Shown here piece after piece: positions 983 through 43,296 of a DNA stretch of 64,000 bases. A program made the position numbers and the translations under genes. Source of the stretch: Antedon mediterranea (taxonomy: Eukaryota > Animalia > Echinodermata); contig NC_092671.1 in assembly GCF_964355755.1 (NCBI RefSeq), positions 34,296,304 through 34,360,303 of the forward strand, in the 5' to 3' direction. Under the pieces are notes generated by a model. That model did not search any database and was not told where the DNA came from. It saw only the letters and a list, made by a program, of their open reading frames with translations. Numbering within the stretch: the stretch's first letter is position 1; each line of letters begins with the position of its first letter.

Positions 983-1749
983 CGTTGCTTTCTAAAAATA
1001 TAATATTTATTTGAAAGAAATTAAAAGTAAAGTAGTATTAATAGTTATAATAAAATATAAATTCATTAATGGAATTAATTATTATTGTCAATTAAAAGCA
1101 TAACCAAATACAAATTTAAACTTCCTACACCTCAAGAATTGTGTATTGAATTTCATGTACGTTATTATTAATTGAAATCTCTCAAATAATTATGATAATT
1201 TTAAAATACATTCACATAGATTGTTATTCATATTATATTATGTAAACAAAAAGATTTATAAATAAATGATTATGATTGTACAGAATTTAGTGTGAATAAA
1301 TAATGGTTACCACAAATCATAACAAACATCAACATTGCATTTACACATACTTCCTACACATTATTTAAATATAAAAATCAATCTTACAACTTTTGAATGT
1401 CTTTTTGAATATTTTAGATAATTGTCCAATTTGTAAAATAAGTTAATACAGTACTATAGTATCATGTACCTATAAAATGTATAGGTCCATGATAGTAATA
1501 CAAAACAGGTACAGGTACTGTAACTTGTTAAAACATAAGATAATCAAAATGCTTTTGACCTTTAACTTGCTATTGCAAATGTAATAACAAAATCAAGTTT
1601 AAGCTAACTATAATATAGTATGTTAAAACAATGACAGTACATAGCAATCTGGTTGTCAATAAATAACAAAGCTGGTAATTAAACAATGCATTAATATTCA
1701 GACATTATTTATGTAAATTTACTAATGAATCTTAATACTTTTTTTACAG

Positions 1750-1761
1750 AAAAAGGCGAAT
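1750..1761 (+). CDS. Putative 12-nt microexon (aaaaaggcgaat)
   Basis: tactaat branch point, T-tract, acag acceptor ending 1749, gtaagt donor at 1762. Confidence 0.6.
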
Positions 1762-2329
1762 GTAAGTATAAACTTTCATTGTCTAATTGTTTACTAAATT
1801 AAAAATGCAAAATGTATTACAAAGTAAAAGTAGTATAATGAAATAAATGAATGAATCAACTTGCAAATTATGGTAAAAACAAAGCATAATAAAAACAAAA
1901 TTTCATTTAGACACTTCCTATAACTCAGGAAGTGTGTATTGCATGTACTGTATTAATCTTTCAAATAATTATAATTATAAAAATGAATTCATAATTCATA
2001 ATTTAAAAAAATATATATACAAACAAAAATTATACTACAACTTTTAACTGTTTTATTTTTGGTATTTGAAATAATAGTATACATTAATGTTTACAAAGTG
2101 AATTAATATATAGATTTTTTTCCAAATAAAAACATTTTTTTTTAAATTGCTACTTTACATTTTTAAATTATAAGAGAATCAAACGATTTTAGCATAGTGA
2201 AAGAAAAAAAGACAATAAATAGCAGTCTAGTTGTCAATAAATAATAGAGCAGGTAGTTAAAAAATGCAAAACTATTCAAACATTATTTATGTAAACATAC
2301 TAATGAATCTAAAGAGAAAGAGAGTAACT

Positions 2330-4763
2330 TTCCAATACAGCGGTTGATCGAACGTTATTAATGGTAACATACCATGTTACCAGTACCAAAACGTATTTGC
2401 CCCAACTTATTTTAAACTCCTTATTTATGTGTCCAGTGTCTGATACTGAAATTATAGATTTTGTCAAATGCTTTGAAACTAATAAAGCGCAAGGACTTGA
2501 TGAATTCAGTCCAAAAGTTATTAAACAATCAATTTCCTTTTTGGTTAAACCTCTATGTCACATATTTAATCTATCTTTAACAAAAGGAGTTTTTCCAGAT
2601 AAATTGAGATAAAAAGAGTTACTGCCATCTTTGAAGCAGGTAAAAAGGACACTTTATCTAATTGCCGACCGATTTCAGTCCTTTCGGTATTTTCTAAAAT
2701 ATTAAAAAGAAATATCTATAATAGAACCTATGCCTTTATGAAAAAAAAACATATTCTATTCAATAGGCAATTTGGATTTCGCAAAAATGTTGATACCGCA
2801 ACCCGCAATGGCCTTAATTAATTGATTTGTCCAATGAAATAATAGATGCATTTGAAGATGATAAGTTTGCAGTTCAAAACTATAACCATTATGGTATTCG
2901 CGGTGTTTCTCTCAATTTATTTAAGAGCTATTTATCCAACCGCTACCAATATACCAAGTTTTTTTACTCCCAATCTGACTATTTGCCTATTAGCTGTGGA
3001 GTACCACAAGGTTCATTACTAGGTCCTCTTCTGTTTCTTTTATATGTGAATGATATTTACAATTCGTCAGTATCTTTATCTTATTTTTTTATATGCAGAT
3101 GACACAACACTAATATGTTAAAATCGACACTTAGAGTCGCTGTTTAACACTGTAAATACAAGTTTAACTAGAGGGTACTCCGAGAGTACAAACCTCCGCC
3201 TACTGTAAAATTCCTCTACATAAAATGCCCCCTGAATATTTTTTTTTAACATTTTTTTTTATTAGCTCTAAGTGTAAATATGTTAACTGCACACTACAAA
3301 GTTGTGGATGACAGTGTGGTGCAATGGTTATGTATCCAGCCTCTCACAGTTGAGGTCGCTGGTTCAAGCCCCACTGAGGGTTTTTTTTTTTATTATTTTT
3401 TTATTTTTTATTTTTTTTTTTTTGGTGGACCTTGATCTTTGACCCTGACCCTTCAAAATGTAACCACAATTATATGATGTGTCATTGATCATTGTGGCTA
3501 AGTTTGGTGAGAATCGGATCAAAACTGTGGTCTCTAGACAGTAAAATAGTTTTTTGTTAGTTGTGACCTTGACCTATGACCTTTCCCCTCAAATTCGAAC
3601 TCGTCCGAGCTTTTTGGGCATAGATCATTGTGTCCAAATTTGGTTAGAATCGGATAAAAACTGTGGCCTCCAGGCTGTTCACAGACACACACACAAACAC
3701 ACAAACACACACACAAACACACAAACAAACACACACACAAACATACAGGGGTGAAAACATAACCTCCTTGGCGGAGGTAATTAATGTATCCGAATGGTTT
3801 CTGGCAAATTTCCTTTCTGTAAATTTAAAAAAGTGCAGCTGTGTTTTGTTTAGAAGTAGTCCGATGCCGGTTAAATTAGGTCCATTGCAAATTAAACTAA
3901 ACGGTTTTGTTCTCCCCATGGTCAATCATGTTAAATGTTTGGGTGTATCCATTGATAGTCGTCTGACATGAAAACCTCATAATTATTATTGAGACAGAAA
4001 ACAAAATCTTGATTTAAATTAATTAAATTATTGATATAATTTGTAGACTGGCATCTTTTCTTCCACATAACATTCCCATACAATTTAAATAAACTTCAAA
4101 TACTAAAACAAAAAAATCATCATACGAATTATTTCGAATGTTTCACCTAGAACTAATACAGATCCTTTATTTCGGTCTCTTAAATTATTAAAATTGACAG
4201 ATATTAATATTTGTCAACAATGTTTATTTATTTACAAAAGCCAAAATGCTCTTCTTCCATCTCATTTGCGCGATATGTTTTCACCCAATTATGAATTTCA
4301 CGGCTATTCTAAAGGAATCCTCAATAACCTTCATATTCCTAAATACAAAAAGACTGGACTCAAGATATGGAACTCACTTCCTAACATAATTACAACTTCT
4401 GCTAATAAACATAGCTTCATCCTTAACACTAAACATATTTAACACAAAAGTAATTTAATAACTAGTTATATTCTAGGTATCAGTTTTTATTGTTTTCATA
4501 TTCTTTTACGGTAAATACTTTATCCCTATCTATTATTTACTAATTTGATTTTAATTATTTTTTTGTTTTTGTTCAGGCACTTTCAACACAAGCTTTTGCT
4601 TTCCGAAATTGTGCCTCCTTCATAATATTGTTTTATTCATTTTAAGTATTGTATTGTTTTAACTACCTTACTTCTCGTTATAAATTTTGTATTGTATTAT
4701 TTATATTTTGTATATTATGAAGGAAATAAATGTTACTATGAAATGTAATGAAATGAAATGAAA
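2330..4763 (+). mobile_element. Decayed 5'-truncated L2/CR1-type LINE (RT pseudogene)
   Basis: Fragments LVKPLCHIFNLSL..GVFPD, GVPQGSLLGPLLFLLYVND, frameshifted YADD, GLKIWNSLP; 3' (gaaat)n tail. Confidence 0.9.
3166..3780. mobile_element. Non-autonomous Helentron/HINE-like element with internal tRNA-like segment, inserted in the LINE
   Basis: Subterminal inverted motif cctccgcc (3194) / ggcggagg (3770), terminal hairpin acctccttggcggaggt, (CA)-rich microsatellite. The LINE frame resumes on both sides. A-box and B-box-like motifs lie at 3317-3370. Confidence 0.6.
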
Positions 4764-7613: not shown

Positions 7614-8677
7614 AGTAGAGTAGGCCTAATTAGCCTACTCTAAGGGCCTCCTAGCCTAGCCTACCCTGGGCCTAGAGGCTAGGTAGGCCTTCCCTAGGCC
7701 TAGCCTAGTAAGTAATAATAGGCCTATAGGCCCTAGTACCTTGATATCTAAAAACTAAGCCTAGAATAGGCATCATCCCAATTGACATTGTAAAATAAAT
7801 TCATGAATTATTAAATATTATCTTTTTAAATCATAACAATCAAGGGTACAACAAGTAGTAATAGTATTATAATGAAATATAATTACAGGTATATAAAATT
7901 AAGATTTTTATAATAGTGAATAAACTTTGTTACTTACTAAAAATATAATATTTATTTGAAAGAATTTAAAAGTACAAGTAGTATTATAATGAAATATAAA
8001 TTCATGAATGGACTAAATGTTATTATTATTGTCAAAGCATAAACCAAATACAAATTTAGACTTCCTACACCTCAAGAATTGTGTATTGAATTTCATGTAC
8101 GTTATTAATAATTGAAATCTCTCAAATAATTATGATAATTTTAAAATACATTCACATAGATTGTTATTAATATTATGTAAACAAAAAATATTTTTCAAGA
8201 AATTATTGTACAGCAAGTGTGAATAAAGAATGGTTACCACAAAGCATAACAAACATCAACATTGCATTTACACATACTTCCTACACATTATTTGAATAGA
8301 ACTTAATCAATCTTACAACTTTTGAATGTATTTTTGAATATTTTAGATAATTGTCCAATTTGTAAAATAAGTTAATACAGTACTATAGTAGCATGTACCT
8401 ATAAAATGTATAGGTCCATGATAGTAATACAAAACAGGTACAGGTACTGTAACTTGTTAAAACATAAGATAATCAAAATGCTTTTTACCTTTAACTTGCT
8501 CTTGCAAATTAATAACAAAATCAAGTTTAAACTAACTATAATAAAAAATGTTAAAACAATGACAATAAATAGCAATCTGGTTTTCAATAAATAACAGAGC
8601 TGGTGATTTAAACAATGCATTAATATTAAGACATTATTTATGTAAACTTACTAATGAATCTTACTACTTTTTTTCAG

Positions 8678-8689
8678 CAAATGGTATGA
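8678..8689 (+). CDS. Putative 12-nt microexon (caaatggtatga)
   Basis: tactaat, T-tract, tcag acceptor ending 8677, gtaagt donor at 8690. Confidence 0.6.
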   Translation, partial: QMV

Positions 8690-8864
8690 GTAAGTATAAA
8701 CTTTAATTGTCTAAATTAAAAATGCAAAATGTATTTCAAAGTAAAAGTAGTATAATGAAATAAATGAATGAATCAACTTACAAATTATAGTTAAAACAAA
8801 GCATAATAAAAACAAAATTTCATTTACACACTTCCTATAACTCAGGAAGTGTGTATTGAATTGC

Positions 8865-9829: not shown

Positions 9830-10877
9830 TTGAATTGCATGTACTGTATTAATCTTTCAAATAATTATATTGTAAAAAAAAAATATATATATAAACAAAA
9901 GTTATACTACAACTTGTTACTGTTTTATTTTATGTCTTTGGAATAATTGACTGTATACAATACAAAGTGAACTAATATAGATTTTTGTCTAAAGAAAAAA
10001 AAAAAAATTTAAATTGCTATTATACATTTTTAAATTATAAGAGAATCAAAAGAGTTTAGCATAGTGAAAGAAAAAATGACAATAAATAGCAGTCTAGTTG
10101 TCAATATAGCAGGTAGTTAAACAATGCATAACTATTCAGACATTATTTAGATAAACATACTAATGAATCTAAAGAGAAACAGAGGAAGTATAAACTTGAA
10201 CTATCTATTGTTAACTAAAGTGTGACATTTATTACAAAACAATTGAAAGTACAAGTAGTATAATGAAATAGAAATTCATAAATGGACTTGCATATTTTGC
10301 TCAAGAAGAAGCATATAAAATCAAATTTTCATTTCCTACACCTCAAGAACTGTGTATTGAATTTCGTGTAACTGTTTTATTGCTAATTTTATAATGAAAT
10401 GCAAAATTATGGACATAATTAATTATTAATGGTCAAGACAAATCATAACAAAATCAAAATTGATTTTAGACATTACACCTCAAGAATTGTGTATTGATTT
10501 TTATGTAACTTTATTAATGTTAATCTTTTAAATAGTTGTAATAATTTTTTAAAAAATTCATAAATTAATAGTTATCAATGGCCTTGCAATTATGGTTACC
10601 ACAAAGCAATAACAACATCAAAATTTAATCTTTTAAATAATTGTAAAATAAATATATTATTATTTATTTATTCTATTTTTAAGTCATAAAAAATCAAAAA
10701 CATGAAATAAAGATTAAATTTACTAAAATATAATAAGTGAAACAAAAAAATTGACAATACATAAGCAGTCAGATTGTCAATAAATAACAGATCAGGTAAT
10801 TTAAACAATGCAGAGCTATTCACAGGCATTATTTATTTAAACATACTAATGAATCTTAAAATACTTTTATTTTACAG

Positions 10878-10892
10878 TGAACTGTTATTATA
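10878..10892 (+). CDS. Putative 15-nt microexon (tgaactgttattata)
   Basis: catactaat, T-tract, acag acceptor ending 10877, weaker gtaaag donor at 10893. Confidence 0.45.
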
Positions 10893-12141
10893 GTAAAGTA
10901 TAAACTTAAAATGTGAAACCAAATAAAAAATACAACTATTATAATGAATTGTAAATTTAAAAAATATTATTATGGTTAGGACAAAGCATAACAAATCAGG
11001 ATTGCATTTAGACTCTACTTTACACTACACTAAGGAAATGTGTATTGAATTAATATACTACTGTATCTGAGTTTGAATATTTTTTTTAATTAAAAAATAA
11101 GTTATTTTAATAGATTTATGCTTTGAAAATTATTGTTTGAATGGTACTGAATTGAAACTTATTAAATCAAAGGAAAATCAAATGGTTTTCAGTCTGTCTG
11201 ACTCACTATTGCCAAAATAAATTGTGTATTTAAGTTTATGTTAACTGTATTAATTTGAGTCTTTCAAATGTCATAATTGAAAAAATAAATGAATCATTAT
11301 TTTAACAAAAAATATTTAAAAAAATGAAAACTTCTGTTGGCTAAAAGTACGGTAAAATTGCATTTAGTCAAAATCAGACAATGTGATGCTGGTATGTGTG
11401 TGATGTCATCATAAGGAGTTTGGATTTTTTTTTTCATATTGCGAACAGGAATAATTATATAATGAGTAAGAGAAGAAAATAACAATTCACAAACCGTCTG
11501 ATTGACAATAAATAATAGAGCAGATAATTTAAACAATGCAGAAACTATTCAGACATTATTTATGTAAACTAATGAATATTTAATACTTTTTTTTTCCGAA
11601 AAATGAAAGTACAAGTAGTAATGAATAAATTGATGAATGGAATTGCATATTATGATCAACACAAGCATATCAACATTGATTTTAGACACTTACTATACCT
11701 CAAGAATTGTGTATTGAATTTCATGTAACTTTATTAATTTGAATTTTTAAATAATTGTAAAATAAATTCAATAAATTATTATTTAATATTTTCTTTTTAA
11801 ATCATAAAAATCAAGGGTTTTTGACTAATGACACTATTGCAAAAATAATAAGAACCAATTTTAATATTTATCCCAATGTATAATACATTTTAGAAATTAA
11901 CAGAACATAATTCATCTAAGAAAACAATATCAAACATTTAAATAGTAAGATGATAATTTAGAGACAATGCCTAATCGTCAATAAACAAAATAGGAAGAAA
12001 TAAAAAAAAAAACACTAATGACAATATAAACTATTCTGGCAGAACTTATTTGTATATATACTAATGACAATGTCAAAGGTTAATAAGTAAAATAATAATA
12101 TACCAGTACCATTTAATAGTAAATATGGTACTGTATATAGT

Positions 12142-12578
12142 AAATGGAAACTGGCCGTTAATGTTGATAAAACAAAAATCATAATATTTAATAAGAGGGG
12201 AAAAGTTCTAAATTATAAATTTTATTTCGGGACCGTTAACATAGAAATCACAAATGAATACAGTTATCTTGGTATAACGTTCATCCCATCTGGTTCCTTT
12301 AACAGAGCAATGAATAAATTAAAAGACAAAGCCCTTACAAGTTTTTTCAGAATTAGAAATACTTTGTCGTTCGCATCCGTCAATAGGGCATTTCAACTGT
12401 CAAGAAGTTTAATTAATCCTATTGTGAGTTACGGAAGTGAAGTATGGGCTCCTTATTTATTAAGAAATGTAAATGAAAATAATTTTATCGATCAATGTGA
12501 TAAATATTCTGGATAATCGATTAATATTAAAATATGCAAAAATATTCTTGGAGTAAACAAAAAAGCATCCAACCATCC
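12142..12578 (+). mobile_element. LINE RT C-terminal fragment
   Basis: WKLAVNVDKTKIIIF...YSYLGITF...PIVSYGSEVW. Confidence 0.75.
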
Positions 12579-13757
12579 AAACAAAATCAAAATTGCATTT
12601 ACACATACTTCATGCACCCCAGGAATTGTGGATGAAATTTCATGTTCTGTATTATATTAAATCTTTCAAATAATTGTACTAATTGTAAAATAAGTTCATA
12701 GATTAATAATTAAACAATAGCAAAATTATTAAAAATATTTATTTACAAAAAAATAAATCTTACAACTTTTGACTGTATTTTGGATCTTTTAGCTAATTTT
12801 CCAAATTGTAAAATTAGTTTACTATATTATATGTATTATTTAAAAGTTCCATGTAAAGCAGTATGATGAAATATAAATTGAATGATGAATAACTTCAATA
12901 TTATTACTATTACTGTTTCCTTTAGACACTTCCTACACCTGTGAAATTTATTACAACAAGATTGAAATATATTATAATTAAATGTAAATTGAATGGACTT
13001 TATCCACTTATTAAAGCAAAACAGAATCAAAATTGCATTTAGACACATTCTACACCCCAGAAAGTGTGTATTGAATGTCATGTACTGTATTAATTTGAAT
13101 ATCTTTCAAATAGTTGTAAAATAAATTCATGATACAACTTTTTACTCTATTTATTTGGTTATTTTAAATTATTGTCTAAATTACAGAATAAGTTAATTCA
13201 ATAGATCTTTGTTTATATTGTTATTATATTCAGAATCAAAATAAATGTTATTACTGTTAATTATAACTTTTTAAATGATAAGAATATCAAGATATTTTAG
13301 ACTAAATGACCTGCTATTGCAAAATAATAACAAAAATAAAGATTAAACTTACTATAATTAGCAGTATGGTTGTTAATTATATAGAGCAAGTAATTGAAAC
13401 AATGCAACTATTCATTCAGACATTATTCATGTAAACATACTAATGAATTAATATAAAATGCAAATTATAGTAATAAAACAAATAATAAAAACAAAATTTC
13501 ATTTAGACACTTCAATAACTCAGGAAATGTGTATTGAATTGCATGTACTGTATTAATCTTTCAAATAATTATAATTGTAAAAATAAATTCATAATTCATA
13601 ATTTAAAAAAAAATATATAAAAATAAAACTTTTTACTGTTTTATTTTGGGTATTTGGGATAATTGACTGTATACATTACAAAGTAAATTAATATATAGAT
13701 TGTTGTCTAAATAAAAATATTTTTTTAAAAAATTGCTATTACTAGATGGTACGCGAG

Positions 13758-13841: not shown

Positions 13842-15476
13842 AAAAAACAAAAGTATTGCAACAAAATTGAACATCGCTGACAGAGTGGATACAACTGCAA
13901 ATAAAGATGCTTTCATAACCCTCAAAGACCACAAACCGAACTTCACTAACAAACCTACTTGCCGATTAATAAACCCGACCAAATCCGAGATAGGCAAGAT
14001 AAGCAAAACTATACTCGATCGTATTAACAGCAAAATTACATCAAAACTTCGCACCAATCAATGGAAAAATACCTCATCGGTCATCGAATGGTTTAAGAGC
14101 ATCGACAAGAAACAACAACACAACTTTATATGCTTCGACATCGTAGAATTTTACCCCTCTATCAGCAATGACCTGCTGAATAAAGCACTAGACTCTCCTA
14201 AAAGATACGATGATATTACCAACGACGAAAGAGACATCAACGTACATACCAAAAAATCAGTACTATCATACAAACAGTAACCATGGCTAAAGAAAGGCCC
14301 CACAGCATTCGATGTGACTATGGGTAGTTATGACGGCGCAGAAACATGTGAACTTGTTGGAAGCTTCCTGTTACACCAATTACAACAGAAACTAGGAATC
14401 AACATAGGACTTTACAGAGACGACCTTGCAGTCACAGACACCACACCTAAAAGCACAGAAAATATTAAAAAAGACATATGCCAAATATTAAAAGATAACG
14501 GCCTACGCATTACCATAGAAGCAAACAAACAAGTCATCAACTTCTTAGACGTCACACTCAACCTAGCGAAGAACACATACCAGCCCTACACCAAACCAAA
14601 CGCCACGTTACAGTATATCCATCAACAAAGTAACCACCCACCGACCATCCTAAAGAATATACCCGCCGGAATAAACAGGTGACTCTCGTCCTTGTCATCC
14701 GACAAGAATTCATTCGACCAAGCCGCCCCTGTATACCAGAAAACTCTCAACGACAGTCAGTACACACTAAAATACGAGCCGGTAACCCAGACAAGACGAA
14801 AAAACAGACAACGAAAAGACATTCTGTGGTACAACCCACCGTTCAGCAAAAACGTCAGCACAAACATTGGACAGAAATTCCTATCCCTAGTAGACAAACA
14901 TTTTCCAAAAGATAACAAACTAAGAAAAATCTTCAACCGAAACACTATCAAGATTAGCTACAGTTGTATGAACAATATGAAACAGATAATAGACAGTCAC
15001 AACAAGAGAATACTCAACCAGCCCGAAACAACATCCGTGGAAAACACGCAAGAAAACAAAACATGCAACTGCCGACAGAAAAACACATGCCCGCTAAACG
15101 GAAATTGCTTACAATCATCTGTAATATACCAAGCCACAGTTACACGCAAAGACAAATCCACCTCGGAAACTTATTTCGGACTAACTGAAAATGATTTTAA
15201 AACACGATACAGAAATCACACCTCATCATTCCGTAATTCACGTTCTAGAAACTCAACTGAACTCAGTAAACATATTTGGACACTCAAGGACAATAACACA
15301 GACTATACAATCTCATGGCGCATCTTGACATTTACTAAAGCATATAGTAGCGCAAACAAACAATGCAATCTCTGCCTCAAAGAGAAATTATTTATCATCC
15401 GCCACCCTGAATTATCGACATTAAACAAACGTAACGAACTTGTGTCCGCCTGCCGGCACAGAAAGAAAGCATTGTT

Positions 15477-15515
<39 letters not shown>

Positions 15516-15640
15516 AGCTGACATTCCAAAACATATCACCTGTAAATGCTAATTCTACAAGTAAATGTGCTTATAAGCAGCGTTGTAATTGATTCTTCTC
15601 ATTATAGTCTCCTGATGAGTGAGTTGCACGACGACGAAAA
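13840..15640 (+). mobile_element. 5'-truncated Penelope-like element (Naiad-like), RT + GIY-YIG, with stop codons
   Basis: CRLINPTKSEIG, FDIVEFYPSI, MGSYDGAETCEL, LYRDD, CNCxxxxxCPLxGxC linker, VIY...YFG..RY.NH GIY-YIG; stops at 14278 and 14680; CTGATGA...GAAA remnant at 15612. Confidence 0.9.
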
Positions 15641-15690
15641 TAAAAAGCGAAAAGCTAAATCAAAACGATAAAGTAAACAGCCAGAAAAGT

Positions 15691-15731
15691 TAGCAGAGCT
15701 TTCGGGCAACTCTAGCCCTTCATCAGTGCAA
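15691..15731 (-). ncRNA. Minimal hammerhead ribozyme (inverted copy)
   Basis: Reverse complement of 15773-15813 with one loop mismatch. Confidence 0.8.
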
Positions 15732-15772
15732 GTGAAGGAATTTGGATAATGACGTTATCCAAATTCCTTCAC

Positions 15773-15813
15773 TTGCACTGATGAAGGGCTAGTGTTGCCC
15801 GAAAGCTCTGCTA
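15773..15813 (+). ncRNA. Minimal type I hammerhead ribozyme of a Penelope-like 3' end
   Basis: ttgca CTGATGA a gggc-tagtgtt-gccc GAAA gc TC tgcta: core boxes, stem II, palindromic AGCT stem III. Confidence 0.85.
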
Positions 15814-15930
15814 ACTTTTCTGGCTGTTTACTTTATCGTTTTGATTTAGCTTTTCGCTATATATATATATATATATATATATTTTTTTAAAGATTATACA
15901 TTTTCATCTGAGAGTGCTTATCTTTTTACA

Positions 15931-17298: not shown

Positions 17299-17519
17299 TT
17301 TTGCCAGAGACATTCACATATTAACAATTATTTACACTTGAAGCTTTTGTCTTTGTTTTAAATTTCCTGCTTTATAAGCAACCATTCCTGCTTTGTACAC
17401 CATAGCTTTTGGAGGCGTGCCTTTATAACTATGCCTTTTGTTTGTTAACATCTTTGATTGGCTGATTTGTTTTATTATGTAATTTTGTGACTTATATATG
17501 TTATCCTTTGTTACAATTC

Positions 17520-17559
17520 TTTTCACCTGATGATGGGCTATGCCCGAAACATGTTAAAA
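17520..17559 (+). ncRNA. Hammerhead ribozyme, 5' pLTR copy lacking the GTC triplet
   Basis: ttttcac CTGATGA t gggc-tat-gccc GAAAC at [gtc missing] gttaaaa. Confidence 0.7.
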
Positions 17560-17741
17560 TAAATCTATATTGAGGCAGTTTTAACTTATTTGATCTTGAT
17601 TTTTTTCTATATCCTGCCTATGCAGCTCTTTGATTTATATATATATACAGTACTACTACTCTGCTGCATCCACCGGTTTTATATATATCTTTTGTTATCA
17701 CCATCGTTTTTTGTTGTGTACCTGTTTGTTTTATAACAAGT

Positions 17742-20464: not shown

Positions 20465-20673
20465 ATTTTGCCAGAGACATTCACATATTAACAATTATTT
20501 ACACTTGAAGCTTTTGTCTTTGTTTTAAATTTCCTGCTTTATAAGCAACCATTCCTGCTTTGTACACCATAGCTTTTGGAGGCGTGCCTTTTGTTTGTTA
20601 ACATCTTTGATTGGCTGATTTGTTTTATTATGTAATTTTGTGACTTATATAATGTTATCCTTTGTTACAATTC

Positions 20674-20716
20674 TTTTCACCTGATGATGGGCTATGCCCG
20701 AAACATGTCGTTAAAA
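20674..20716 (+). ncRNA. Minimal type I hammerhead ribozyme, 3' pLTR copy
   Basis: ttttcac CTGATGA t gggc-tat-gccc GAAAC at GTC gttaaaa; palindromic CATG stem III. Confidence 0.9.
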
Positions 20717-20789: not shown

Positions 20790-20831
<42 letters not shown>

Positions 20832-26548: not shown

Positions 26549-28502
26549 CCCTGTCTACATAAAAACTCTTAAGGTGAAAAATATCTATTAAAAACTACTA
26601 ACAATGGTGTAGCTTAAAGACCTACTTTAAATAGTGCTACATCAACTATGATACAACTGCTTACTGTGTACTTTTAATAGGTAGTACCTATTATGTCACC
26701 TATCTATTTTATGTAGTCAGAAAGTAGTCAAAGAAATTATGATAAAATCCTTAGTAGCCAAGAGAAAAAACTACTAACGGCCTATTAAGCCTACTAAGGA
26801 TTGAGCTATTTCTATTAAAGACTATCTAAATATACTTAGTTATTTCGTTATGAGTTTACATGGTCAAGTTTGTCATTAATAAAATGCAGTAGAAGTAAAA
26901 TTGAGAAACATTACAAATGAATCAATTCTTTGTATTTATAAAAACGCAATTTTTTACGTTTAAAAAAAAATTACTTTCCTTAGTTACACATAGAAATGGT
27001 TGCTAAGGTAACACTATAAGTAAAAAATGAAAATTGTTGAGAATTTTTATGAACTATCTTGTAAATTTTGATCAAACATTAATAGTTGTAGTAAAAAGGT
27101 CAGATTTTTTTGGGAGGTCTTTCTGTATCTCTTTAAACAAAATAGATTTAAAAATTTATAAAAACCCTTGACGCTATTATTTCAAAGTTTAACATTATTT
27201 TCCATCAACTAAATATTTCAATGCAAAATACTGTTTTTCTGGCAATTAATTGAAATAAACCTGGCAACACATTCTCCTATTTTATCTAAACTATTCGTAT
27301 GACTCTAGTAGCATTATGACAAGCCACATATACCTTTTATTATTGGGTTAGCCATATTAAATTGTGTTTCATGTGTTTTGTTTGTTGATATTTTGCTAGT
27401 ATTTTTTTGTATTTTTCGTATTTTCCTGGCAACACAAAACCTATGTACGAAATTTACCCCAGTGTTTTCTTCGTGATTATTGTTGACAAACCTATTGACT
27501 ATCAAATTAAAAAACCTCATTGATTTAAAAACACCACTTTAGAAGTTATAGGTACGTTTATGAGGTATACTTTTATAAAAAAAATATTTTTTAAAAACAC
27601 CCCTTTTTAAAATAATGGTATCAACCAAACTCCATTTTGTAATCTTTTTTTTTCTACATTAAATGGAACTCAATAAATTTTGTTTACACTGCTATAAACA
27701 AAAACTGTATACTGTAAGTATTTTTGGTTAAAATAAGTATACAAGTTTGTACTTTTTCACTATTGAAAATCTGTAAAAAATGGCAAAAACATCAACATTT
27801 GGATAATTGACCGTTGTCATGGCAACGGAGGCTAAAAATTAAAATGAATGCTGTAGATATGCTTTTTATTGAAATGTCTATTCATGGTAAAAATTTGAGA
27901 GAAATCCATTTTTTTACATCTGCCACCAAATCTTTGATTTTTACAGACAATGGCTCTTAAATACAATGTTCAACCTTAATACCTTAGTTTTTTGGAAATA
28001 ATTACAAAATGTACTGTATATTGTATGCAGTGTCAGAAAACATTTTATTATATATCACTTCAAAGTTCAGTAGTGTAATGTAATGTGCATAATGAATGAA
28101 CTAATACAAACCAAAGAATACCTAAAGTAAACAATTATTAAAAATAACCAAGAACAATATTTATATTTTAAATATAATATAAAATAATTAACTGACGGTG
28201 GCCATCATAGATTTGTTTGAAATCAGGTGAACACCGACAGCTGAATGGAGTTGTTGAGTTGCTGGCAGGTTTTAACAGGTTGCACGGTAACCGCAGGTGT
28301 GCCGCCGGGACCCGGGATGCATTTATCACAAATATTGATTTCGCGTGAAAATTTGCTCCCAAATACTTCCCACGATGCTTCGCGCACACTATTTGAGATA
28401 AACCATATTGGCCCATGTTGCAAGACGTTAAAATGTCTTGCTGAATGTCATTGTGTGGTGTTTGCTGAATGTTTAAAAGATTTGAAATAAATACTGTATT
28501 TA

Positions 28503-29886: not shown

Positions 29887-30814
29887 TTATACCAATTAAG
29901 CCTACCGCATTTATTTGAATAAACATTATTTTAAATCTGCACCTTCTAATACACCCCACCACATATATTTATACACACAATATTGTATAATAACACAAAC
30001 AAAATTCTATTTGTATTAGAATTCATTGACTGCTATATCTTCAATTTACCAAGCATTTTGATAAAATTGTTTACAGTATTTATCACTTTTTGATTAATTA
30101 TAGTCTTGTATTTCTTCATATCTAGGGGAATTTATTTTACTATGAAATGTTACCATATTACAAACAAACGCCTCCATCGAACTCCCCACCCTATAACACC
30201 CACCCCGCCTCAACAACAAATATGTACAAGGAAATGATTTTACACAATTTTACTGTGTTAACATATTTTAAGAAATTAAACAAATTAAAAGAACATAATT
30301 CATCTAAAAAAATAATATAAAACATTAAATAGTAAGATGATAATTTAAAGAGAATGTCTAATTGTCAATAAACAATAGAGCAAGAAATTACTAAAAAAAA
30401 AACCACAAATATAATCTATTCTGCCAGAAATTATTTATGTTATACTAATGAAGCTTATTTTATCTGATGATGAATAAACTTGCATACCAAGACAAAGTAT
30501 TTACAAAATCAAAATTCATTCAAATACCTTATAGTGCCTCACTATTACATCTCTGTCACAGTTTGTTTTAACTCATTCATTGCGTATATAAATATTTTTT
30601 TTAATATTTCAAGTTTTGTTTAAATTAAATTACTTTAAAGATGCAAGACATAACTTTTGTATACAGTAATAATAATGGTATGATGAGTAAGAGAAGAACA
30701 ATACACAAACCATCTGATTGACAATAAATATTAGAGCAGATAATTTAAACAATGCAGAAACTATTCAAAGATTATGTAGACATACTATTGAATCTATAAT
30801 ATTTTTTTTTACAG

Positions 30815-30832
30815 ACAAAATATATGGTCATC
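30815..30832 (+). CDS. Putative 18-nt microexon (acaaaatatatggtcatc)
   Basis: Variant branch point (catactatt), T9 tract, acag acceptor ending 30814, gtaagt donor at 30833. Confidence 0.6.
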
Positions 30833-31952: not shown

Positions 31953-31973
31953 AAAACTGGACATACTGGAGGA
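31953..31973 (+). CDS. Putative 21-nt microexon (aaaactggacatactggagga)
   Basis: catactaat, pyrimidine tract, acag acceptor ending 31952, gtaagt donor at 31974. Confidence 0.6.
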
Positions 31974-33828
31974 GTAAGTATCAGCTTAATATCTAATTGT
32001 TAGATAAAGCATGGAGTAATTATTACTCCATGGATAAAGTGTGAAATGTATTACATAACACTTAGCACAATGAATGGCCAATTATGATTAGCACAAAGCA
32101 TGAACAAAATTTCATTTATACAGTATTAATAATTTAAATCTATCAAATAATTATAATTGTAAAATACCTTCATAGATTGTTATTATTTAAACAAAATATA
32201 TTTACAAAGGAATGATTTTACAGCATTTTACTGTGTTATGATATTTTAGGCCTAATATTTGTCTAAACAAACAAAATATTTGTAAAGATTTTATACTAAA
32301 ACTCTTTTAACTTTTTTATTCTCTTTATTAAACTTGCTATACAAACATTTAGTAAAATAACACAAATGCAATACATAGCAGTCTGATTGTCAATAGATAA
32401 TAAGAGCAGGTAATGAAAACAATGCAAAACTATTCATACATTATTTATATTAACATACTAATGAATATAAATACTACTTTACAGACAGCGAGAGTATAAC
32501 CTTAATATAATTATGATTAGATAAAGTGTGAAATTTATTATGTAACACTTAAAATTGCAAGTAATAATTAAAGGCCTTTTATGGTTACCACAACGCATAA
32601 CAAAATCAAAATTACATTTACACATACTTCATGCACCCCAGGAATTGTGGGTGAAATTTCATGTTCTGTATTATATTAAATCTTTCAAATAATTGTACTA
32701 ATTCTAAAATAAGTTCATAGATTAATAATTAAACAATAACAAAATGATTAAAAATATTTATTTACAAAAAAAAATTAATCTTACAACTTTTGACTGTGTT
32801 TTTGGATCTTTTAGCTAATTTTCCAAATTGTATAATAAGTAATTCACTATATTATATGTATTATTTAAAAGTTCCATGTAAAGCAGTATGATGAAATATA
32901 AATTGAATGATGAATAACTCCAATATTATTACTATTACTGTTTCCTTTAGACACTTCCTACACCTGTGAAATTTATTACAACAAGATTGAAATCTTTTAT
33001 AATTAAATGTAAATTGAATGGACTTTATCCACTTATTAAAGCAAAACAGAATCAAAATTACATTTAAACACATTCTACACCCCAGAAAGTGTGTATTGAA
33101 TGTCATGTACTGTGTTAATTTGAATCTTTCAAATAGTTGTAAAATAAATTCATGATACAACTTTTTACTCTATTTTTTTTTTGGTTATATTAAATTATTG
33201 TCTAAATTACAAAATAAGTTAATATAATAGATCTTTGTTTATATATATATATATATATATATATTGTAATATTTGTGGCAAACAGTAGGCTACGTCGGGG
33301 AAACAAAAAACACTCTCCGTATGAGAATGACACAACTCAGATCAGCTATCACAACATTAAAGCTTGATCAACCTGTAGCCGAACGAACATTTTAATTCAG
33401 CTGGTCACTCGATTGCAAATTTCAGAGTTATTGCAATAGACCACGATGTCAAATGTAGCGACAACATTTGCAAAGACAAAGAAAACCACTGGGAATTACA
33501 ACTTAAAACCACAAAAACTTTTGGACTTAACATTAGGAACATACTAGATCGGTAAAGTCATTCCATTTACTACCAACATTTAAGTTTCAATATTAACCAC
33601 CATTTAAGCTGTTTTTTAGTTTCATTCCAAAGTTGTTTATATCTCTACCAAACTACCTTCTTTGTTTTCTACTCTTATTCAGTCTCCACCCACCATTCAA
33701 CAGGCTGTTTCTATTGTTATATTTCTTTTATTCCTGTCCACCCAGGCAGCACTTGCCAGTTCTTATGCTATGACGTTATCCAAATTCCTTCACTTGCACT
33801 GATGAAGGGCTTTTCAGGGTTCAGGGCT

Positions 33829-36247
33829 GAAAGTAAGAAAAAAGCCACCCCTGTAAAAAGCCACCATTGTTAAAAGCCACCCAACAATGGACTATACCAT
33901 TTCAAAATGGGGGTGCTATGTAATCAACTTGTATTTAATTGTGTGTTATGAATAGGAATGTAGCATGAATTACATGTACAACATTTTATTAAATATAAAT
34001 TTGGAATACTTAGGACTGACAAATGTAAACAAACGACACAAAAATAAGAATCAATTTTTAATAAACATGTATTCAATTTAATTTGAAATCTCCAAATAAA
34101 AAATATCACATAGTCCTTATACAATGAAAAAGTATTGATATTATAAACATTCTGTCTAATTAAAAACATTACATTAAATTGAATGAATAAATAAATAAAG
34201 TACACAAAATTATATTTAATTATATCAGTTTAACATTTTTGAGAGATAATAATTGTTTTATATTTGCAAACACTGTACATTAAATACAAGACGTGGCATT
34301 GGTTGCAAGTTACTTTAATCGTATGGCATAACCTAGTGCAGTCATAGTTTGATATAATGCTTTGGCCTGTCGGTTGTACTTAGAAATTATGTTATAGAGT
34401 TGCTCCTGGTGTTTAACTGTTGATTTGGTAATGCGTTTAGATGGCACTGGTTGTCCTCGCCTTACAAGTTCAATTAAAGTCGCTGAAGATGCTTCATCTC
34501 TTTTGACTGCATTGATTGATGACCAGATAGATGGGTTTGTATGACCAGTGTTGTTAAGATGCTTTCTATTCCAGGATTCACAAATGTTGTTTGTCCTTGG
34601 TTCACAGTTTAATGTCAGGTGATAAACGTTCCATAGGTCTATGTCAAACATTGGTGGGATCCTTCTGAATATGTGTTGTTTGCCTGGTTGTGCCATGTGA
34701 TGCGAATATGTTCCGTTGACATAAGTTGTATCAAAGTAGTCAAGAAAGTCCTCTAATACTATACTTCAGGTGAATTTTCCCGTAGGTGCTGCATACCTTC
34801 TTTGACCTAGATAAAACAAAGATTATTTATGAGTAAAGTAGAATGATCAATGTTCCAGATAATTCTTAATTTGAAATCATGTAGGCCTAAGAGTCATTTT
34901 TATGTTTTAAAGTTATGGTGCTACAGTACGAATAAATGTTCAAATTAAATTGATAAAAGAAATCAAATAAAGGGACATGACAACATAGCTTGTAGAACAA
35001 TTAGATAGAAAAAAGTTATTAAATCAATTATTAAAGCAGTAAAATTATAAAGAACAAGTAAAAAATCACCATCTTGAAATGCATAATTCTATGTGAACGG
35101 AAGGTGGAAATTAAACAAATAAATATAAATAAAATATATTGTAAAGATAACATACCTTATCTGGAGGCAGGAAAGCGAGACCATCTACCATTCCACAGAT
35201 GGTACATAACCTAGTAGTCTACATTGATCAACAATGGCAGTAAGAAATTGTTTGTAATGTTCTTGCAATTTTGATGCAAGTAGCACATATACAGTTGTTA
35301 TCGAATTGTCTTCTAACTCAACGTGAATCACATACAATTGCTCATAGAGTTTTGGGCTGGTTTTAAATGTTCCATCCATAAACCAGGTTGTTGAATTGCA
35401 TAGGTGACGCAAACCATCCGAAGTTGCAAAAACTGTGACACGGTCATTATTACCAATCATAGCATCATGGATTAGAAAGTCTCTGTGATCAACAGTTTTC
35501 ATCCATTCACCATCAATGACTAGGTCTTCCAGCGATTGTGGCTGACCAGGATGACTTTTACTTCTTTTGATTCTGATGTTTCTTTTTAGACTTTCTGCAC
35601 AAGTCATAGTAACACGAACATTGAGCGGTTGTTTGGCCATCTCATCAATGACTATCTGAGCTGGAGTTGCTCTACAAGTTGTGCCTTTATCCATAATACT
35701 ATGTCTTGCTTTCTCTGCATGAGCCTTCATGATGTTAACTGCATGATTGTGTTCCGATACATACTGCACTTCGGCCATATCGATGTCTGTCCGTAGTACA
35801 CCTTTGCAAGCAAACTTTCTATGTGAAGAACACTCCCAAATTATCGAACTTCTGTTAGACTTACGTTTAGTATAAAGATAACCATCATAGCATAATTTGC
35901 GACCTCCCTTATTATTTGTAATGAACTCCATTTTGAAATGATTTGTATTTTGATAACGTGCCTTAACATTACAATGGCATAACATGTATTATGAATCTTA
36001 ACTAAGTAGGAAGTGTTTGATGTTTTGGCAGTGGCATTTGGAAGAGGTAACATGAAAAGTGTAGGCATCCCTTTGATTAGCTTTGATATTGTTTCTAAAT
36101 AACACCTACACCCAAATTGCTATTCACAATAACACAATTAAATAAAAATTGATTGTCCAGCACTCCCACTTTACAATGGTATAGTCCATTGTTGGGTGGC
36201 TTTTTAAAATGGTGGCTTTTTACAGGGGTGGCTTTTTTCCGATTTCC
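33829..36247 (-). mobile_element. Mutator (MULE) DNA transposon
   Basis: ~90-bp TIRs (gaaaaaagccacccctgtaaaaagccacc...) at 33829-33918 and 36158-36247; target duplication approximately gaagggct. Confidence 0.9.
34310..35931 (-). pseudogene. FLYWCH + MULE transposase, internally deleted, with one intron (~34807-35155)
   Basis: GGRKLCYDGYLY...WEC...CKG...HNH (FLYWCH), WFMDGTFK..P.LYEQLY, RTNNICESWN. Confidence 0.85.
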
Positions 36248-37254
36248 GAAGGGGCTAGTGTTGCCCGAAAGCTCTGCTAACTTTTCTGGCTGTTTTACTT
36301 TATCGTTTTGATTTAGCTTTTCGCTTTTTTTTTTTATCTCCATTGAGATCCAGCCACTGATACCCACAGCGTTGTCATTTTTTCAGTAATTTGCCTTTGG
36401 ATTTATATATATTGTTATTATATTCAGAATCAAAATAAATATTATTACTGTTAATTATAACTTTTTAAATGATAAGAATATCAAGAGATTTTAGACTAAA
36501 TGACCTGCTATTGCAAAATAATAACACAAATAAAGATTAAACATACTATAATTAGCAGTATGGTTGTTAATTATATAGAGCAAGTAATTGAAACAATGCA
36601 TAACTATTAATTCATACATTATTCATGTAAACATACTAATGAATTAATACTTGTTGTAAAGAAAAAACATAAACTATCTAATTATTTACTAAAATGTGAA
36701 ATATATTCCAAAATACAATTGAGAGTACAAGTAGCACATACAGTACTAGCATATTACTGTTTGGTCAAAGTGGCAAATACTTCCTACTTTTAGGCAATTT
36801 TTTTTTTAATTTGGATATTTTATTTAGATATTTCTTCAAAATATAAAATAATTTGTATTATATATTTCAATTATTTTTAAATTTAAATAAGTTTATAATT
36901 ATACATTATCATTTAAGCCACAAATAATATGTATACTACAAAAATGGTAGTCCTAGTCTACTACAACTTTTCTAATATTTCAAATACAGTAATTGTCTAA
37001 ATTGTCATATTATAGATTTGTCTTTAAACACATTTTCCTAAACCTTCTTTTAAAAACAATGTTCAACCTTAATACCTTAGTTTTTGGAAATAATTGCCAA
37101 ATGTATATTGTATGCAGTGTCAGAAAATATTTTATTACATATCACTTCAAAGTACAGTAGTATAATGTAATGTGCATTATAATGAATGAACTAATACAAA
37201 CCAAAGCATAACATAAAGTAAACAATTATTAAAAATAACCAAGAACAATATTTA

Positions 37255-38720
37255 TCTATATATAAATTAAGGTTAATTCTGACATAGGCGAGCACAATGC
37301 AAAAACTTCGGTACAAATCTCCGCCTTGGATACCTACCTTATCTATCTCAGATGTACCGCGAAACGTAGATTTGATAACATTAGTGTTCAGTTCGACGCT
37401 ATTGTTCCATATTTCTAGCGCAGGAAGATATTATAAAGAGTTCTTTAACAAAATTTATGATTTCAACAGTAGATTTTCAATTCTTCGCGGTCAAAGTAAT
37501 TTCCGGGTTTACGATAAGTTCACCTTGCAACAACCTGGTTTCAACTATTTTCTCTCTTTTATACAAAAGGAAGCAGTTAAAATATTAGATTTGACACTAA
37601 AGGTGACTGGAAACAGGCACTTTCCATCAATCAATACAGTGTCCCTTTGGAAGACGAAAAAAAAATCAGATAGTAGGACTGGAGCTTAAGTTAATAGAAA
37701 TTATACTGCAAATTAATAAAGATCAAATTAAATATACGCCATAAAGAATCCGAATATATTGTGGGGAATAGTATTATAACATAGGGAGATTTGATGATAA
37801 GACATTTTGTTTAAAATCGAGTGAAATCCCGGTAGCTGAGTTTTATTTAAAAAGCTGGCAGGAATAACTGTAGGCTCTCCTGTGTCCCGTTAGGACCGAG
37901 ATGTCTGTCCATGTTGCAAGCTGTTATGTCTTCTTTCTTGAGCCCAATCTGTCACGGCAGTTAGTTTCAAAAGATGTTTGAATGAAATAATGTATTATTA
38001 ATTATTAGGATGGTATTTATTTGAACAAATGCCTCTCCAATAAAACATCACTTTGAATAATAATCCCACAAAAACACCGACAGCCGAATGGAGTTTTTGA
38101 GTTGCTGGCAGGTTTTAACAGGTTGCACGGTAACCGCAGGTGTGCCGCCGGGACCCGGGATGCATTTATCACAAATAGCTTGATTTCGTGAGAAAATTTG
38201 CTTCCAAATACTTCCCACGATGCTTCGCGCACATTATTTGAGATAAACCATATTGGCACATGTTGCAAGACGTTAAAATGTCTTGCTGGAATGTCATTGT
38301 GTGGTGTTTGCTGAATGTTTACAAGATTTGAACTAAATACTGTATTTATTATACCAATTAAGCCTACCGCATTTATTTGAATAAACATTATTTTAAATCT
38401 GCACCTTCTAATACACCCCACCACATATATTTATACACACAATATTGTATAATAACACAAACACAATTCTATTTGTATTAGAATTCATTGACTGATATAT
38501 CTACAATTTACCAAGCATTTTGATACGATTGTTTACAGTATTTATCACTTGATTATATTAATTATCGTGTTGTATTGTTCATATCAAGGGGAATTTATTT
38601 TATTATGAAGTCTTACCATATTACAAAACAAACGCCTCCCTCGAATTAACTCCCTACCCTCTAACATCCTTCTGGTTTTTATCCTAGGTACCAAAATCTG
38701 ACCATGTGAGTGTGTAGGTG
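37255..38720 (+). mobile_element. Helitron family B, longer 3'-incomplete copy
   Basis: The 5' ~340 bp match 39016-39352 and start with A|TC. The internal part is shared with 28230-28500 and 29887-30200. Confidence 0.6.
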
Positions 38721-39812: not shown

Positions 39813-39827
39813 AGACACTTCACAAAA
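39813..39827 (+). CDS. Putative 15-nt microexon (agacacttcacaaaa)
   Basis: cataccaat variant branch point, acag acceptor ending 39812, gtaaat donor at 39828. Confidence 0.5.
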
Positions 39828-40264: not shown

Positions 40265-40279
40265 AAAACGGCTAAAAAT
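40265..40279 (+). CDS. Possible 15-nt microexon (aaaacggctaaaaat)
   Basis: catactaat, T9 tract, acag acceptor ending 40264. The donor gtaata is weak and may be a by-product of a deletion in this unit. Confidence 0.35.
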
Positions 40280-41391
40280 GTAATATTTATTTCAAAGCAA
40301 TTAAAAGTACGAGTACGGTAGTATAATGAAATATAAATTCATGAATAGACTTATATATTATTATTGTCAAGACAAAGCAAATCCAAATAAAAATTGCATT
40401 TAGATACTGTCCTACACCTCAAGAATATTTGAATTGAAATTCATTAATAATTCAAATCTATCAAATAATTATGATAATTTATTACATTCATAGATCCTTA
40501 TTATTTAAACAAAAAATATTTACAAAAGAAATTATTGTACAGCATTTTACTGTGTTACGATATTTTAAACAATGGTTTAAATTACAAAAAAAGTTAATAT
40601 ATCATGTCCATAAGGAATTACGAATTTGTAAGTTACATCCTCCGAAAATTAAATATGCTCGCCGCGCCATGTTATGTATGTTGGTTACACTTCAATGCAC
40701 ATCATTGTTTGTCATCGATCGATGAATGTATTCCCCGCCATATCGTTAAGAAGAACTAATAAATAAAAACTGCGTGAAATTTATGTACTGTATTAATTTG
40801 AATCATTGTATTAATATTAATAATAAATACATAAATTATTATTTATACAAAAAATATTTTCCAAAAAAATTATACTACAACTGTGTTAATTTGGTTAAAA
40901 TTTTAGGCCTATAAATTAAAATAATAAGTTAATATAATAGATTTTTGTCCAAACACATTTTTTTTAAAGATTGATACTATAAGTTTTTAAATCATAATAA
41001 AATCAAGAGCGTTCAGCATTAATAACTCACTATTGCCAACATAACAAGAAAAAAGATTAAACGTTAATAATATAATAATGTTTCCTTTAGACACTTTCTA
41101 CATCTGTGAATTTTATTACAACAAACTATTATAATGAAATATATATTGAATGGACTTGCATATTATAATCAACACAAAGCATAACAGAATCAAAATTGCA
41201 TTTCGTACTCCTCAGGAATTATGTACTGAATTTCATGGACTGTAATAGTTTGAATCTTTCAAATACTTATGAAATATATTATTTAAATTTAGTTATTATT
41301 TAAGCAAAAATATTTATTTACCCCAAAAAATGATAACATTTTAAATTACAAAATAGAGTTAATATAATAGATCTTTTTTTCACATATTTTG

Positions 41392-42308
41392 TTTTATATA
41401 ACACCTAAATAAATTCCTGTCATTTGATTGGACGATTGTGGGACACATGGCGTGCAATAGTACGCACTATTAAACGATCGTTTAATAGTACTTTTTGAAA
41501 CATTTTTGTGTACGAAAAAAAAAAACGTCTCGCGGATGAAAAAAAATCTAGTACACAAATTATCCTATGATATGGCTATGTACTGTGAAATACAACAGCG
41601 CCACCTGTCGTCTGGTCTCAGTTTCATTTGTAAACACCACCGTGAGATATGCAACAGCAGCAGATATTTGTGTACGATTTGGACATTATGTACTAATTTC
41701 ATTCAAAAAGGCATTTAAATTAGCTTTAGATCGTTTTTAGGATTTTGATTAATTAATGGGGACATCCCTACAAGACGTGGAATTGTTGGAAAAACCATAA
41801 TTAGCTTAGATAAGTTCCAATTGTCTGTCGAAGTTTTGCCTTTCAGCCAAGCTAGTACTAGGCTACTAGGTCTAGCCTAGGCCATGCTAGTATTAGGCTA
41901 GGCCTAGCCTAGGCGTTTTAGCCTTGCTAGGCCTAGGATTGTTTGGTCGTTTGTTGACATAATTAACACAAAAGTAGGTGTGTTTACGAAATCCATATAA
42001 ATATAACATTTAATATAACATTATTAAAAACCAAATGTTACTGTTTTTAATCAAATGTGTGTGAATGAAATGTAGTAAGCTTTGGCTAGGGCTACCTTTT
42101 ATTTGATTCAAATAACTAGAATTTATTTAGATGTTATATAAAACAAATAATGAATGTTTTGTATTCGTGTAATGGTACAAATAATGGCACTTGGTGAATG
42201 ATGAAAGGTTATATCAACTCGGCTTTGCCTCGTTGATATAACCTTTCATCATTCACCTCGTGCCATTATTTGTACCATTACACTCATAAACATTCATTAT
42301 TTGTATAA
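41392..42308. mobile_element. Non-autonomous element with long terminal hairpin (Crypton-like)
   Basis: ~70-bp-arm inverted repeat 42145-42302 around loop tcggctttgcctc. No TSD or TIR found; family assignment tentative. Confidence 0.5.
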
Positions 42309-43296
42309 TAGTTATTACTATAACTGTTTAAATCAAGAGATTTTAGCCTGAATGACTCACTATTACAAAAATATTAACAAAATAAAAGCTTAAACTTACT
42401 ATAATGTGAGTGAAAAAAGTAACAATAAATAACATTCTGGTCGTCAATAAATAGAGAAGATAAGTTTAACATTGGAGAACTATTCATACATCATTTATGT
42501 AAATATACTATTGTTAGGAGATACATTTATACTATTATATTATTATCACTTTACCATAGTATTGTACTGTATATATTATATTGGTTGTAGACTAGACCAA
42601 AGTTCAGTAACCAGGTTGTTAGTAATTGTACCTAGGAGACTGCTCATAACTCAAGTTGTCAGAGACACTTGTTTGATATTCCATATAAGGAAATCGTTAC
42701 AACAACTTCATACTAAAGATGATGATGTCATTTGAATTTCATCTTAAAACCAATTTCATCATCTTTAAGTTATTTGATGAGATCATAATGATCACCCCAC
42801 ATATCCTGCATAAGAATATAAATAGTAGTACATTAACCATATTTAATCAGTCCTAATACGAATACTGACATAGCTAAATTAAATGCTGTTAAGTCTATTG
42901 AAGTATCTAGAAGTCTGTTTGACTGTTTTGAACAACTGAAGTAAAGCTTTATATTAGCCTTGGGCTCAGCTATATTTGTCTTGAATCTTGAATTTCTTTA
43001 TGTATTTTGATTGTGTGTTACCACCATCTTATACTTTGATAATTATTCCATATTGTTAATTAATCTTTATCTTTATAACCATTTTAATTGATTTTGTTAT
43101 CTTTTGCTTTTCTGTTTGAAGAATAAAACGTAGATTAGATTATATAACTTATCTTTTGTATTGCCTATCTTCTGTTTGTGCCTAGCATGTAACAGAAAGT
43201 GGGGGGTCATCCGGGAATCGATAGGTTTATAGTTTTATACCTAGTTAAATTTGTTTTATTTTCAAACATTTGTTTGTGAAATTAGTAACTGTTACA

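Follow-up and report, generated by a model that had tools for sequence, protein, structure and literature searches.

The Locus and the Downstream Gene

The window analyzed here, a stretch of 64,000 nt from the feather star Antedon mediterranea (contig NC_092671.1, positions 34,296,304-34,360,303, + strand, of assembly GCF_964355755.1), contains an array of tandem repeat units, in which short inserts are flanked by splice-like signals, and, downstream of the array, the beginning of a gene for a Roco (Roc-COR) protein. The translation of an open reading frame (ORF) at 46756-47286 matches the beginning of P0001, a RefSeq protein of A. mediterranea with 1081 residues, at 100% identity, and the first 271 residues of P0001 are given exactly by four exons of the window (46756-47287, 47546-47569, 47991-48147, and 49018-49118); the other exons of P0001, past residue 271, were not found within the window. 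The Roc (54.9 bits) and COR-A (56.8 bits) domains of P0001 both score above the Pfam cut-off, which makes it a Roco protein, and in the paralogs P0004 and P0005 a C-terminal Death domain was scored by Pfam as well. The Pfam DED match in the window ORF is weak (E value of 2.6e-4, below the cut-off). For a model of the N-terminal 204 residues of P0005 (mean pLDDT 74), the best Foldseek matches are the tandem DEDs of caspase-8 (probability 1.00, best E value 3.2e-3, TM-score about 0.4, none with E ≤0.001), and on this model the N-terminal part of the Roco gene product is predicted to contain two DED folds. The downstream gene is one for a feather-star tandem-DED/Roc/COR/Death protein.

A profile of the tandem-DED region retrieved 35 proteins. 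The 10 that were examined all come from two feather stars and all have DEDs (nine above the cut-off), with the DED module fused to NACHT in four and to Roc in two; the gene thus belongs to a group of death-fold switches in crinoids. No short relatives of the DED were retrieved by a search for them. Within P0001, residues from about 300 to 450, which lie inside Roc and are encoded by exons past the window, are 29-58% identical to the paralogs versus 82-96% on either side, and the isoforms P0005 and P0006 have a two-residue difference within this variable Roc region.

The Unit Array

The first-pass annotation of this DNA had reported about 16 copies of one repeat, and a unit profile (nhmmer) indeed matches 16 units, all on the + strand, which span 1617-42607 with no match past that span in the window; it should be noted that the profile was built from the same 16 anchors and so probes for extra copies and strand, not for independence. 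A 28-nt core motif gives nine matches with ≤3 mismatches in the window versus none in 100 shuffles. The units are 0.5-1 kb in size, exceeding the ∼200-bp core, and a second module recurs 18 times, also always on the + strand. Duplication, which had been proposed as the way in which the array was built, is directly visible in whole blocks (984-1944/7929-8861, a duplicate of ∼950 bp, and 12580-13218/32599-33244) and involves both single units and multi-unit blocks. The decay of units is evident as well: in 9 of the 16 the pyrimidine tract, the acceptor, the donor, or the whole exon segment is gone. Transposons occupy the gaps between units. The unit sequence has no match in Rfam, and its motif gave no exact match among metagenome contigs.

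Boundaries, Length, and Phase of the Inserts

Seven units carry inserts, designated A to G (Table 1), whose starts and lengths agree with those given in the first-pass annotation. Six of them (A-F, with lengths of 12, 12, 15, 18, 21, and 15 nt) sit between homologous acceptor and donor sites, but alignment of G with the unit of A reveals a ∼42-nt deletion that took out the donor of G. The earlier count of seven intact inserts therefore holds for six with respect to homologous boundaries, with the qualification that C has a weakened donor and creates a stop; likewise, the claim that all lengths are multiples of 3 stands for these six but not for G, whose 15 nt reach only to a cryptic GT. When the inserts are joined in order, 32 of 64 subsets are free of stops, and every subset that includes C encounters a stop on phase-2 joining to downstream inserts or to the DED exon; C is likely to be a decayed or poison exon. 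With G excluded for its lost donor and C for the stop that it introduces wherever it is joined downstream, five clean candidates are left: A, B, D, E, and F.

The lengths of A-F, all divisible by 3, fall into four classes, whereas background candidates on the minus strand are distributed 16/16/14 among the three remainders; the probability of such an outcome by chance, estimated by hand from three independent length changes, is about 1/27. All seven inserts can be read through in phase 2. Stops block phase 0 in B and C, and phase 1 in G alone. The GC content is higher in the inserts than in the flanks (30/93 versus 170/780, p = 0.027). An additional 18-nt candidate exon at 38688-38705 (+), with a branch motif, pyrimidine tract, AG, GTGAGT donor, and open phase 2, has unit sequence downstream and unrelated DNA upstream and is possibly an eighth microexon.

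Divergence of Inserts and Flanks

In the youngest pair of units, A and B, the flanks are mismatched at 44 of 910 positions and the insert at 7 of 12 (binomial probability 4e-7); in a permutation, a 12-column window anywhere reached seven mismatches in 4 of 20000 trials, and windows away from the insert contain at most four. The divergence of the insert is about 10-12-fold that of the flanks in this pair. Among the 15 pairs of the six units with homologous donors, which are not independent of each other, the insert is in every case more divergent than the flank (mean mismatch 0.525 versus 0.219, splice signals excluded). An insert evolving neutrally is expected to change no faster than its flank, so this excess requires that selection or recombination act on the insert in particular. 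The inverted pattern of conservation described in the first-pass annotation, with flanks that remain alignable, is thus confirmed, as is the rapid divergence of the putative exons relative to their surroundings. Its statement that the inserts are largely unrelated is correct as to their strong divergence, but residual homology remains: the mismatch of 0.525 falls short, by a small margin, of the 0.606 obtained with shuffled inserts (p = 0.004), which indicates that the inserts, judged from their sequences, are homologous to each other and nearly saturated, and the first 8 nt of A and G match at seven positions. The likeness that had been drawn to conserved repeats with variable spacers consequently extends to the architecture and not to the origin of the inserts, and, given this mutual homology, a CRISPR-like reading in which the inserts are acquired spacers was rejected. 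In public runs, other copies of insert F show differences at 39819, 39823, and 39826 (3 of 15 positions, among the 40 differences listed of 1011); when these related copies are translated by hand in phase 2, one difference is silent and two change an amino acid.

Connection of the Array with the Roco Gene

The RefSeq initiation codon at 46756 lies within a pyrimidine tract that precedes two AGs, both of which are in phase 2 of the DED frame, and the acceptor phase of the DED exon is the phase that is open in all seven inserts. The intron directly before the DED exon is homologous to array intron at three places (matches of 86/92, 102/111, and 122/140; Table 1). The paralogs P0002-P0005 have 20-28 unlike, charged residues ahead of the point that aligns with the DED acceptor; by eye, the N termini of these paralogs (as distinct from the window copy) are charged and have no hydrophobic run. 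In the model of P0005 the extension and helix 1 of the DED form one helix, residues 3-37, with pLDDT values of 80-89 at residues 11-30. The phase match, the unit sequence in the last intron, and the N-terminal extensions of the paralogs together support, at the level of sequence, a link of the array to the death-fold Roco gene. A likeness seen by eye between insert F and ETSR of the paralogs is not claimed, because the test for homology between inserts and N termini, described below, was null.

Runs X10 and X9 contain spliced RNA, in which 47568 is joined to 47990 at GT..AG, and in X10 an exon homologous to the 24-nt one lies between those for the DED and Roc; neither run has cover at 47302-47505. 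RNA cover is also lacking at 46690-46740, to which no weight is given. Two X10 contigs have unaligned letters before 46781; of the 30 listed, the first 12 spell, as judged by eye, RRWT as in P0005, so that an N-terminal extension is transcribed in at least one paralog. Four pieces begin at 46781 (among 16 of 82 pieces listed), and two of these have no more than 4 and 7 differences over 118 nt, so that variation among expressed relatives also reaches into the first 17 nt of the DED exon. No RNA piece starting at 46764 is present among the 16 of 82 pieces and 12 of 22 loose ends listed. A 33-nt segment at 47738-47770 (+), between an AG and GTAAGA, does not contribute to the RefSeq protein, and the RNA joints pass over it; it is possibly an optional exon.

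Table 1. Units, inserts, and exons of the array and the Roco gene
Feature	Position	Strand	Remarks
Unit block (A)	984-1944	+	Duplicated at 7929-8861; 44/910 mismatches outside insert
Candidate microexon A, 12 nt	1750-1761	+	Canonical donor; phase 2 open
Decayed unit	2196-2419	+	Profile match; T-tract gone
Candidate microexon B, 12 nt	8678-8689	+	Canonical donor, alternative donor after 6 nt; in recent duplicate of the unit of A, 7/12 different
Decayed unit	10064-10276	+	Profile match; T-tract gone
Insert C, 15 nt	10878-10892	+	Donor weakened (one extra A); ends TA, stop at every downstream phase-2 junction
Decayed unit	11463-11619	+	Profile match; acceptor AG gone
Decayed unit	11938-12170	+	Profile match; without tract or acceptor
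Decayed unit	13337-13457	+	Profile match; exon segment deleted
Decayed unit	30326-30563	+	Profile match; without acceptor
Candidate microexon D, 18 nt	30815-30832	+	Canonical donor
Candidate microexon E, 21 nt	31953-31973	+	Canonical donor; internal 9-nt near-duplication (by eye)
Unit	32349-32566	+	Acceptor intact, donor broken; upstream flank 95% identical to that of E
Decayed unit	36531-36750	+	Profile match; donor gone
Candidate microexon F, 15 nt	39813-39827	+	GTAAAT donor
Insert G, 15 nt	40265-40279	+	Ends at cryptic GT; unit's own donor deleted
Last unit	42404-42511	+	Without exon segment; broken by LTR retrotransposon 42512-46394
Intron directly before DED exon	46396-46673	+	Homologous to array intron at 40840-40996, 37161-37255, and 28076-28189
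Tandem-DED exon	46764-47287	+	Pyrimidine tract, AG 46762-46763, second AG 46759-46760; RefSeq start ATG 46756
Exon, 24 nt, phase 1	47546-47569	+	Homologous exon spliced in RNA contigs
Roc exon with P-loop	47991-48147	+	Matches P0001
Next Roc exon	49018-49118	+	Matches P0001

Mobile Elements in the Window

The element that interrupts the last unit and lies within the last array intron (42512-46394, +) is a Gypsy-type long terminal repeat (LTR) retrotransposon with an integrase, a 4-nt target duplication, and broken ORFs, whose LTR copies are 97% alike over 294 bp. Retroelements at 13843-20804, which we take to be Penelope-like, have weak reverse transcriptase and GIY-YIG matches, and the segment 15882-17647 has a second copy, 97.6% identical, at 19049-20804. 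A FLYWCH-containing DNA transposon with 124-bp inverted ends (33837-36239, −) splits a block of which the intact copy is at 12580-13453, and two tandem-repeat tracts, recognized by eye at about 22900-24000 and 25770-26560, lie between the halves of the array. Downstream of the Roco exons are the reverse transcriptase ORF of a long interspersed nuclear element at 52890-54728 and a Pao/BEL LTR retrotransposon (56018-61369, +; 376-bp LTRs 98.4% alike) inside a long inverted-repeat element at 55229-61594.

Interpretation of the Array

The best reading of the array is a microexon cassette under birth-and-death and diversifying selection. On balance, we favor a model in which the array consists of tandem intron-plus-insert units whose intact inserts are probably phase-2 coding microexons, probably under diversifying selection, that would add a variable N-terminal helix. 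That the inserts are coding in some form, including a variant in which recombination generates their differences, can be held with somewhat greater confidence, and the array is likely to give the Roco protein a variable front end. The clean inserts would be spliced as phase-2 microexons between a start exon upstream of the window and the DED exon (five inserts, 20-30 residues), and because all have lengths divisible by 3 and the same phase, any of them could be gained, lost, or skipped without a frameshift. The encoded peptide is predicted from the P0005 model to continue helix 1 of the DED. The variable end would likely serve as a sensing or bait surface, with Roc-COR as the switch and the death folds as the output, and pathogen pressure would be the likely cause of its diversification. 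A role as an immune or cell-death switch is likely from the domain context and from the general background of DED and NLR signaling.

A number of observations weigh against this model. No listed contig joins an insert of the window to another insert or to the DED exon, although read placement is blind to exons of 12-21 nt, and in both RNA-type runs a contig passes unspliced through an F-like unit, in related copies that possibly derive from pre-mRNA or DNA. The RefSeq protein for the window copy begins at ATG 46756, in the DED exon, and a search of the three GTRAG donors in 1-1750 gave no phase-2 first exon with an ATG. The open frames of the inserts are weak evidence by themselves (P = 0.11), phase 1 also being open in the six; C gives a stop at every junction, and G ends at a cryptic donor. 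Comparison of the window inserts with the N termini of the paralogs scored no better than shuffles in all three phases (91 versus 91.7 in phase 2), two of the seven A/B insert changes are at one CpG, and the evidence for an immune function is the domain context.

Some of these points would be explained if the coding cassette were now a relic in this copy of the gene, which would either start at ATG 46756, as in RefSeq, or be itself in decay. Nine of the 16 units are broken and two more compromised, transposons load the 45 kb, F-like units are unspliced in the RNA-type runs, and the closest expressed pieces among those listed start at 46781 rather than 46764. However, the splice signals of A and B are perfect while their inserts diverged at 7 of 12 positions after a duplication that is only 4.8% old, which requires selection on the inserts in that interval, and ATG 46756 is inside a pyrimidine-tract/AG acceptor. 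We consider such a relic rather unlikely.

A coding cassette may alternatively owe its pattern mainly to recombination, with gene conversion homogenizing the flanks or swapping inserts among units or paralogs, in place of serial selected substitutions. The units of E and 32349 are 95% identical over 160 bp upstream, with a sharp drop at the insert, several paralogs are placed on a contig whose length is the same, and recombined leucine-rich repeat (LRR) exon arrays have been described in Ectocarpus ROCO genes (PMC3341825). However, the flanks of A and B are equally young over 770 bp upstream and 180 bp downstream, so that a swap would need to be confined to about 12 nt, and the window contains no donor copy of either insert. 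Recombination as the main cause is improbable.

It is very improbable that the inserts are spliced but non-coding microexons of a 5' untranslated region ahead of ATG 46756. Such an arrangement would accord with the RefSeq start codon and with the failure to find a start exon upstream, in 1-1750, but the acceptor is at or after this ATG, which splicing there would remove; lengths divisible by 3 and divergence above that of introns are not needed in untranslated exons, and the paralogs have coding extensions. The least credible alternative is that the unit is non-coding, a dispersed transposon or a repeat of another kind whose splice-like motifs are due to chance; the first-pass annotation had named a dispersed element, with copies in either orientation independent of genes, as a possible refutation. 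This alternative derives some plausibility from the transposon-rich surroundings but is contradicted by the single orientation of all 16 copies in the window, all upstream of the DED exon, by the lack of an Rfam match, and by the summed contig depth in X1 DNA, which is 1.5-2.8 thousand over the units, like that of the DED/Roc exons (1.9-2.8 thousand), as opposed to 0.18-1.1 million over neighboring dispersed repeats (figures that indicate order of magnitude, not copy number).

The microexon cassette model can be extended, tentatively and with more doubt than confidence, to a proposed feather-star cluster of tandem-DED Roco genes as a whole: their N-terminal helix may be built from a microexon cassette that evolves fast and whose units can be skipped without constraint. 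Genes, alleles, and splice forms would then each present their own peptide on a death-fold switch, and the set would act combinatorially inside the cell, as an immune sensor, a bait for pathogens, or a self/non-self specificity code of a type not known from animals. If so, a cassette on a cytosolic death-fold Roco protein of a deuterostome would be a further source of receptor diversity in invertebrate immunity and would help to establish what it is that the expanded Roc-COR proteins of marine invertebrates detect. Current gene models would also truncate such proteins, because annotation misses exons of 12-21 nt.

Comparison with Known Systems

A literature search gave no title on this arrangement in crinoids, within a coverage that leaves out most subscription journals. 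Among the crinoid Roc-COR proteins themselves, P0007-P0010 have a Roc-COR(-Death) core that is 66-72% identical over the shared part, but with Macro domains (in one case also a DED) ahead of Roc in place of the tandem DEDs and variable peptide of the P0001 type, which suggests swappable N-terminal sensor modules.

In the LRR-ROCO genes of brown algae, repeated exons likewise form an array for the N-terminal part of a Roc-COR protein, introns hold inactivated exon copies, and selection is diversifying; the products are candidate immune receptors. Each exon there is a 72-nt LRR built on a conserved scaffold, part of the exons lie on the opposite strand, and the genes are reported to be alternatively spliced (PMC3341825; PMC11378527). 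The Antedon array differs in that its candidate exons, whose splicing is predicted, are 12-21 nt in length, without a repeat fold, and precede tandem DEDs in an animal. It does not have one 24-residue LRR per exon, the inserts being too short and P0001-P0005 giving no LRR when scanned. Inactivated copies inside the array, as in the algal genes, are represented by the 9 of 16 decayed units; copies on the non-coding strand are absent, since 16 of 16 are on the + strand.

The micro-exon genes (MEGs) of schistosomes have very short, mostly symmetrical exons with lengths divisible by 3 (typically 15 nt), long transposon-rich introns, and rapid coding evolution, but they encode short secreted proteins with a signal peptide, mostly from microexons, in flatworm parasites (PMC4350168; PMC10526429). 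The six inserts with homologous boundaries, if exons, are of the same short, symmetrical type. In a free-living deuterostome, however, the Antedon inserts would contribute about 3% of a cytosolic GTPase of 1100 residues, and the coding sequence is not composed mostly of microexons (≤108 nt of inserts versus a 1081-residue protein). The bicycle genes of aphids likewise have many microexons, almost all in phase 2, and strong positive selection; these putative salivary effectors have microexons throughout the gene and are without Roco or death domains (PMC9168663). All seven Antedon inserts are open in phase 2, the phase of the DED acceptor, which is a property of the genomic sequence as opposed to mRNA, and DED and Roc exons of 524, 157, and 101 nt follow, so that microexons do not extend through the whole gene.

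Exons that outpace the adjacent introns are known from conotoxins and snake phospholipase A2, with a 2.9-fold average excess for mature conotoxin exons that was interpreted as positive selection (10.1101/107672); that contrast is between paralogous genes, whereas in Antedon it is between tandem candidate microexons of one gene and amounts to about 10-12-fold in the youngest pair. Each element of the arrangement thus has precedents: diversifying microexon cassettes were known from secreted effectors of parasites and insects, and Roco exon arrays from brown algae. The array would work like MEGs, bicycle genes, and LRR-ROCO arrays but belongs to none of them, because its candidate microexons account for little of a large protein and none of them encodes an LRR.

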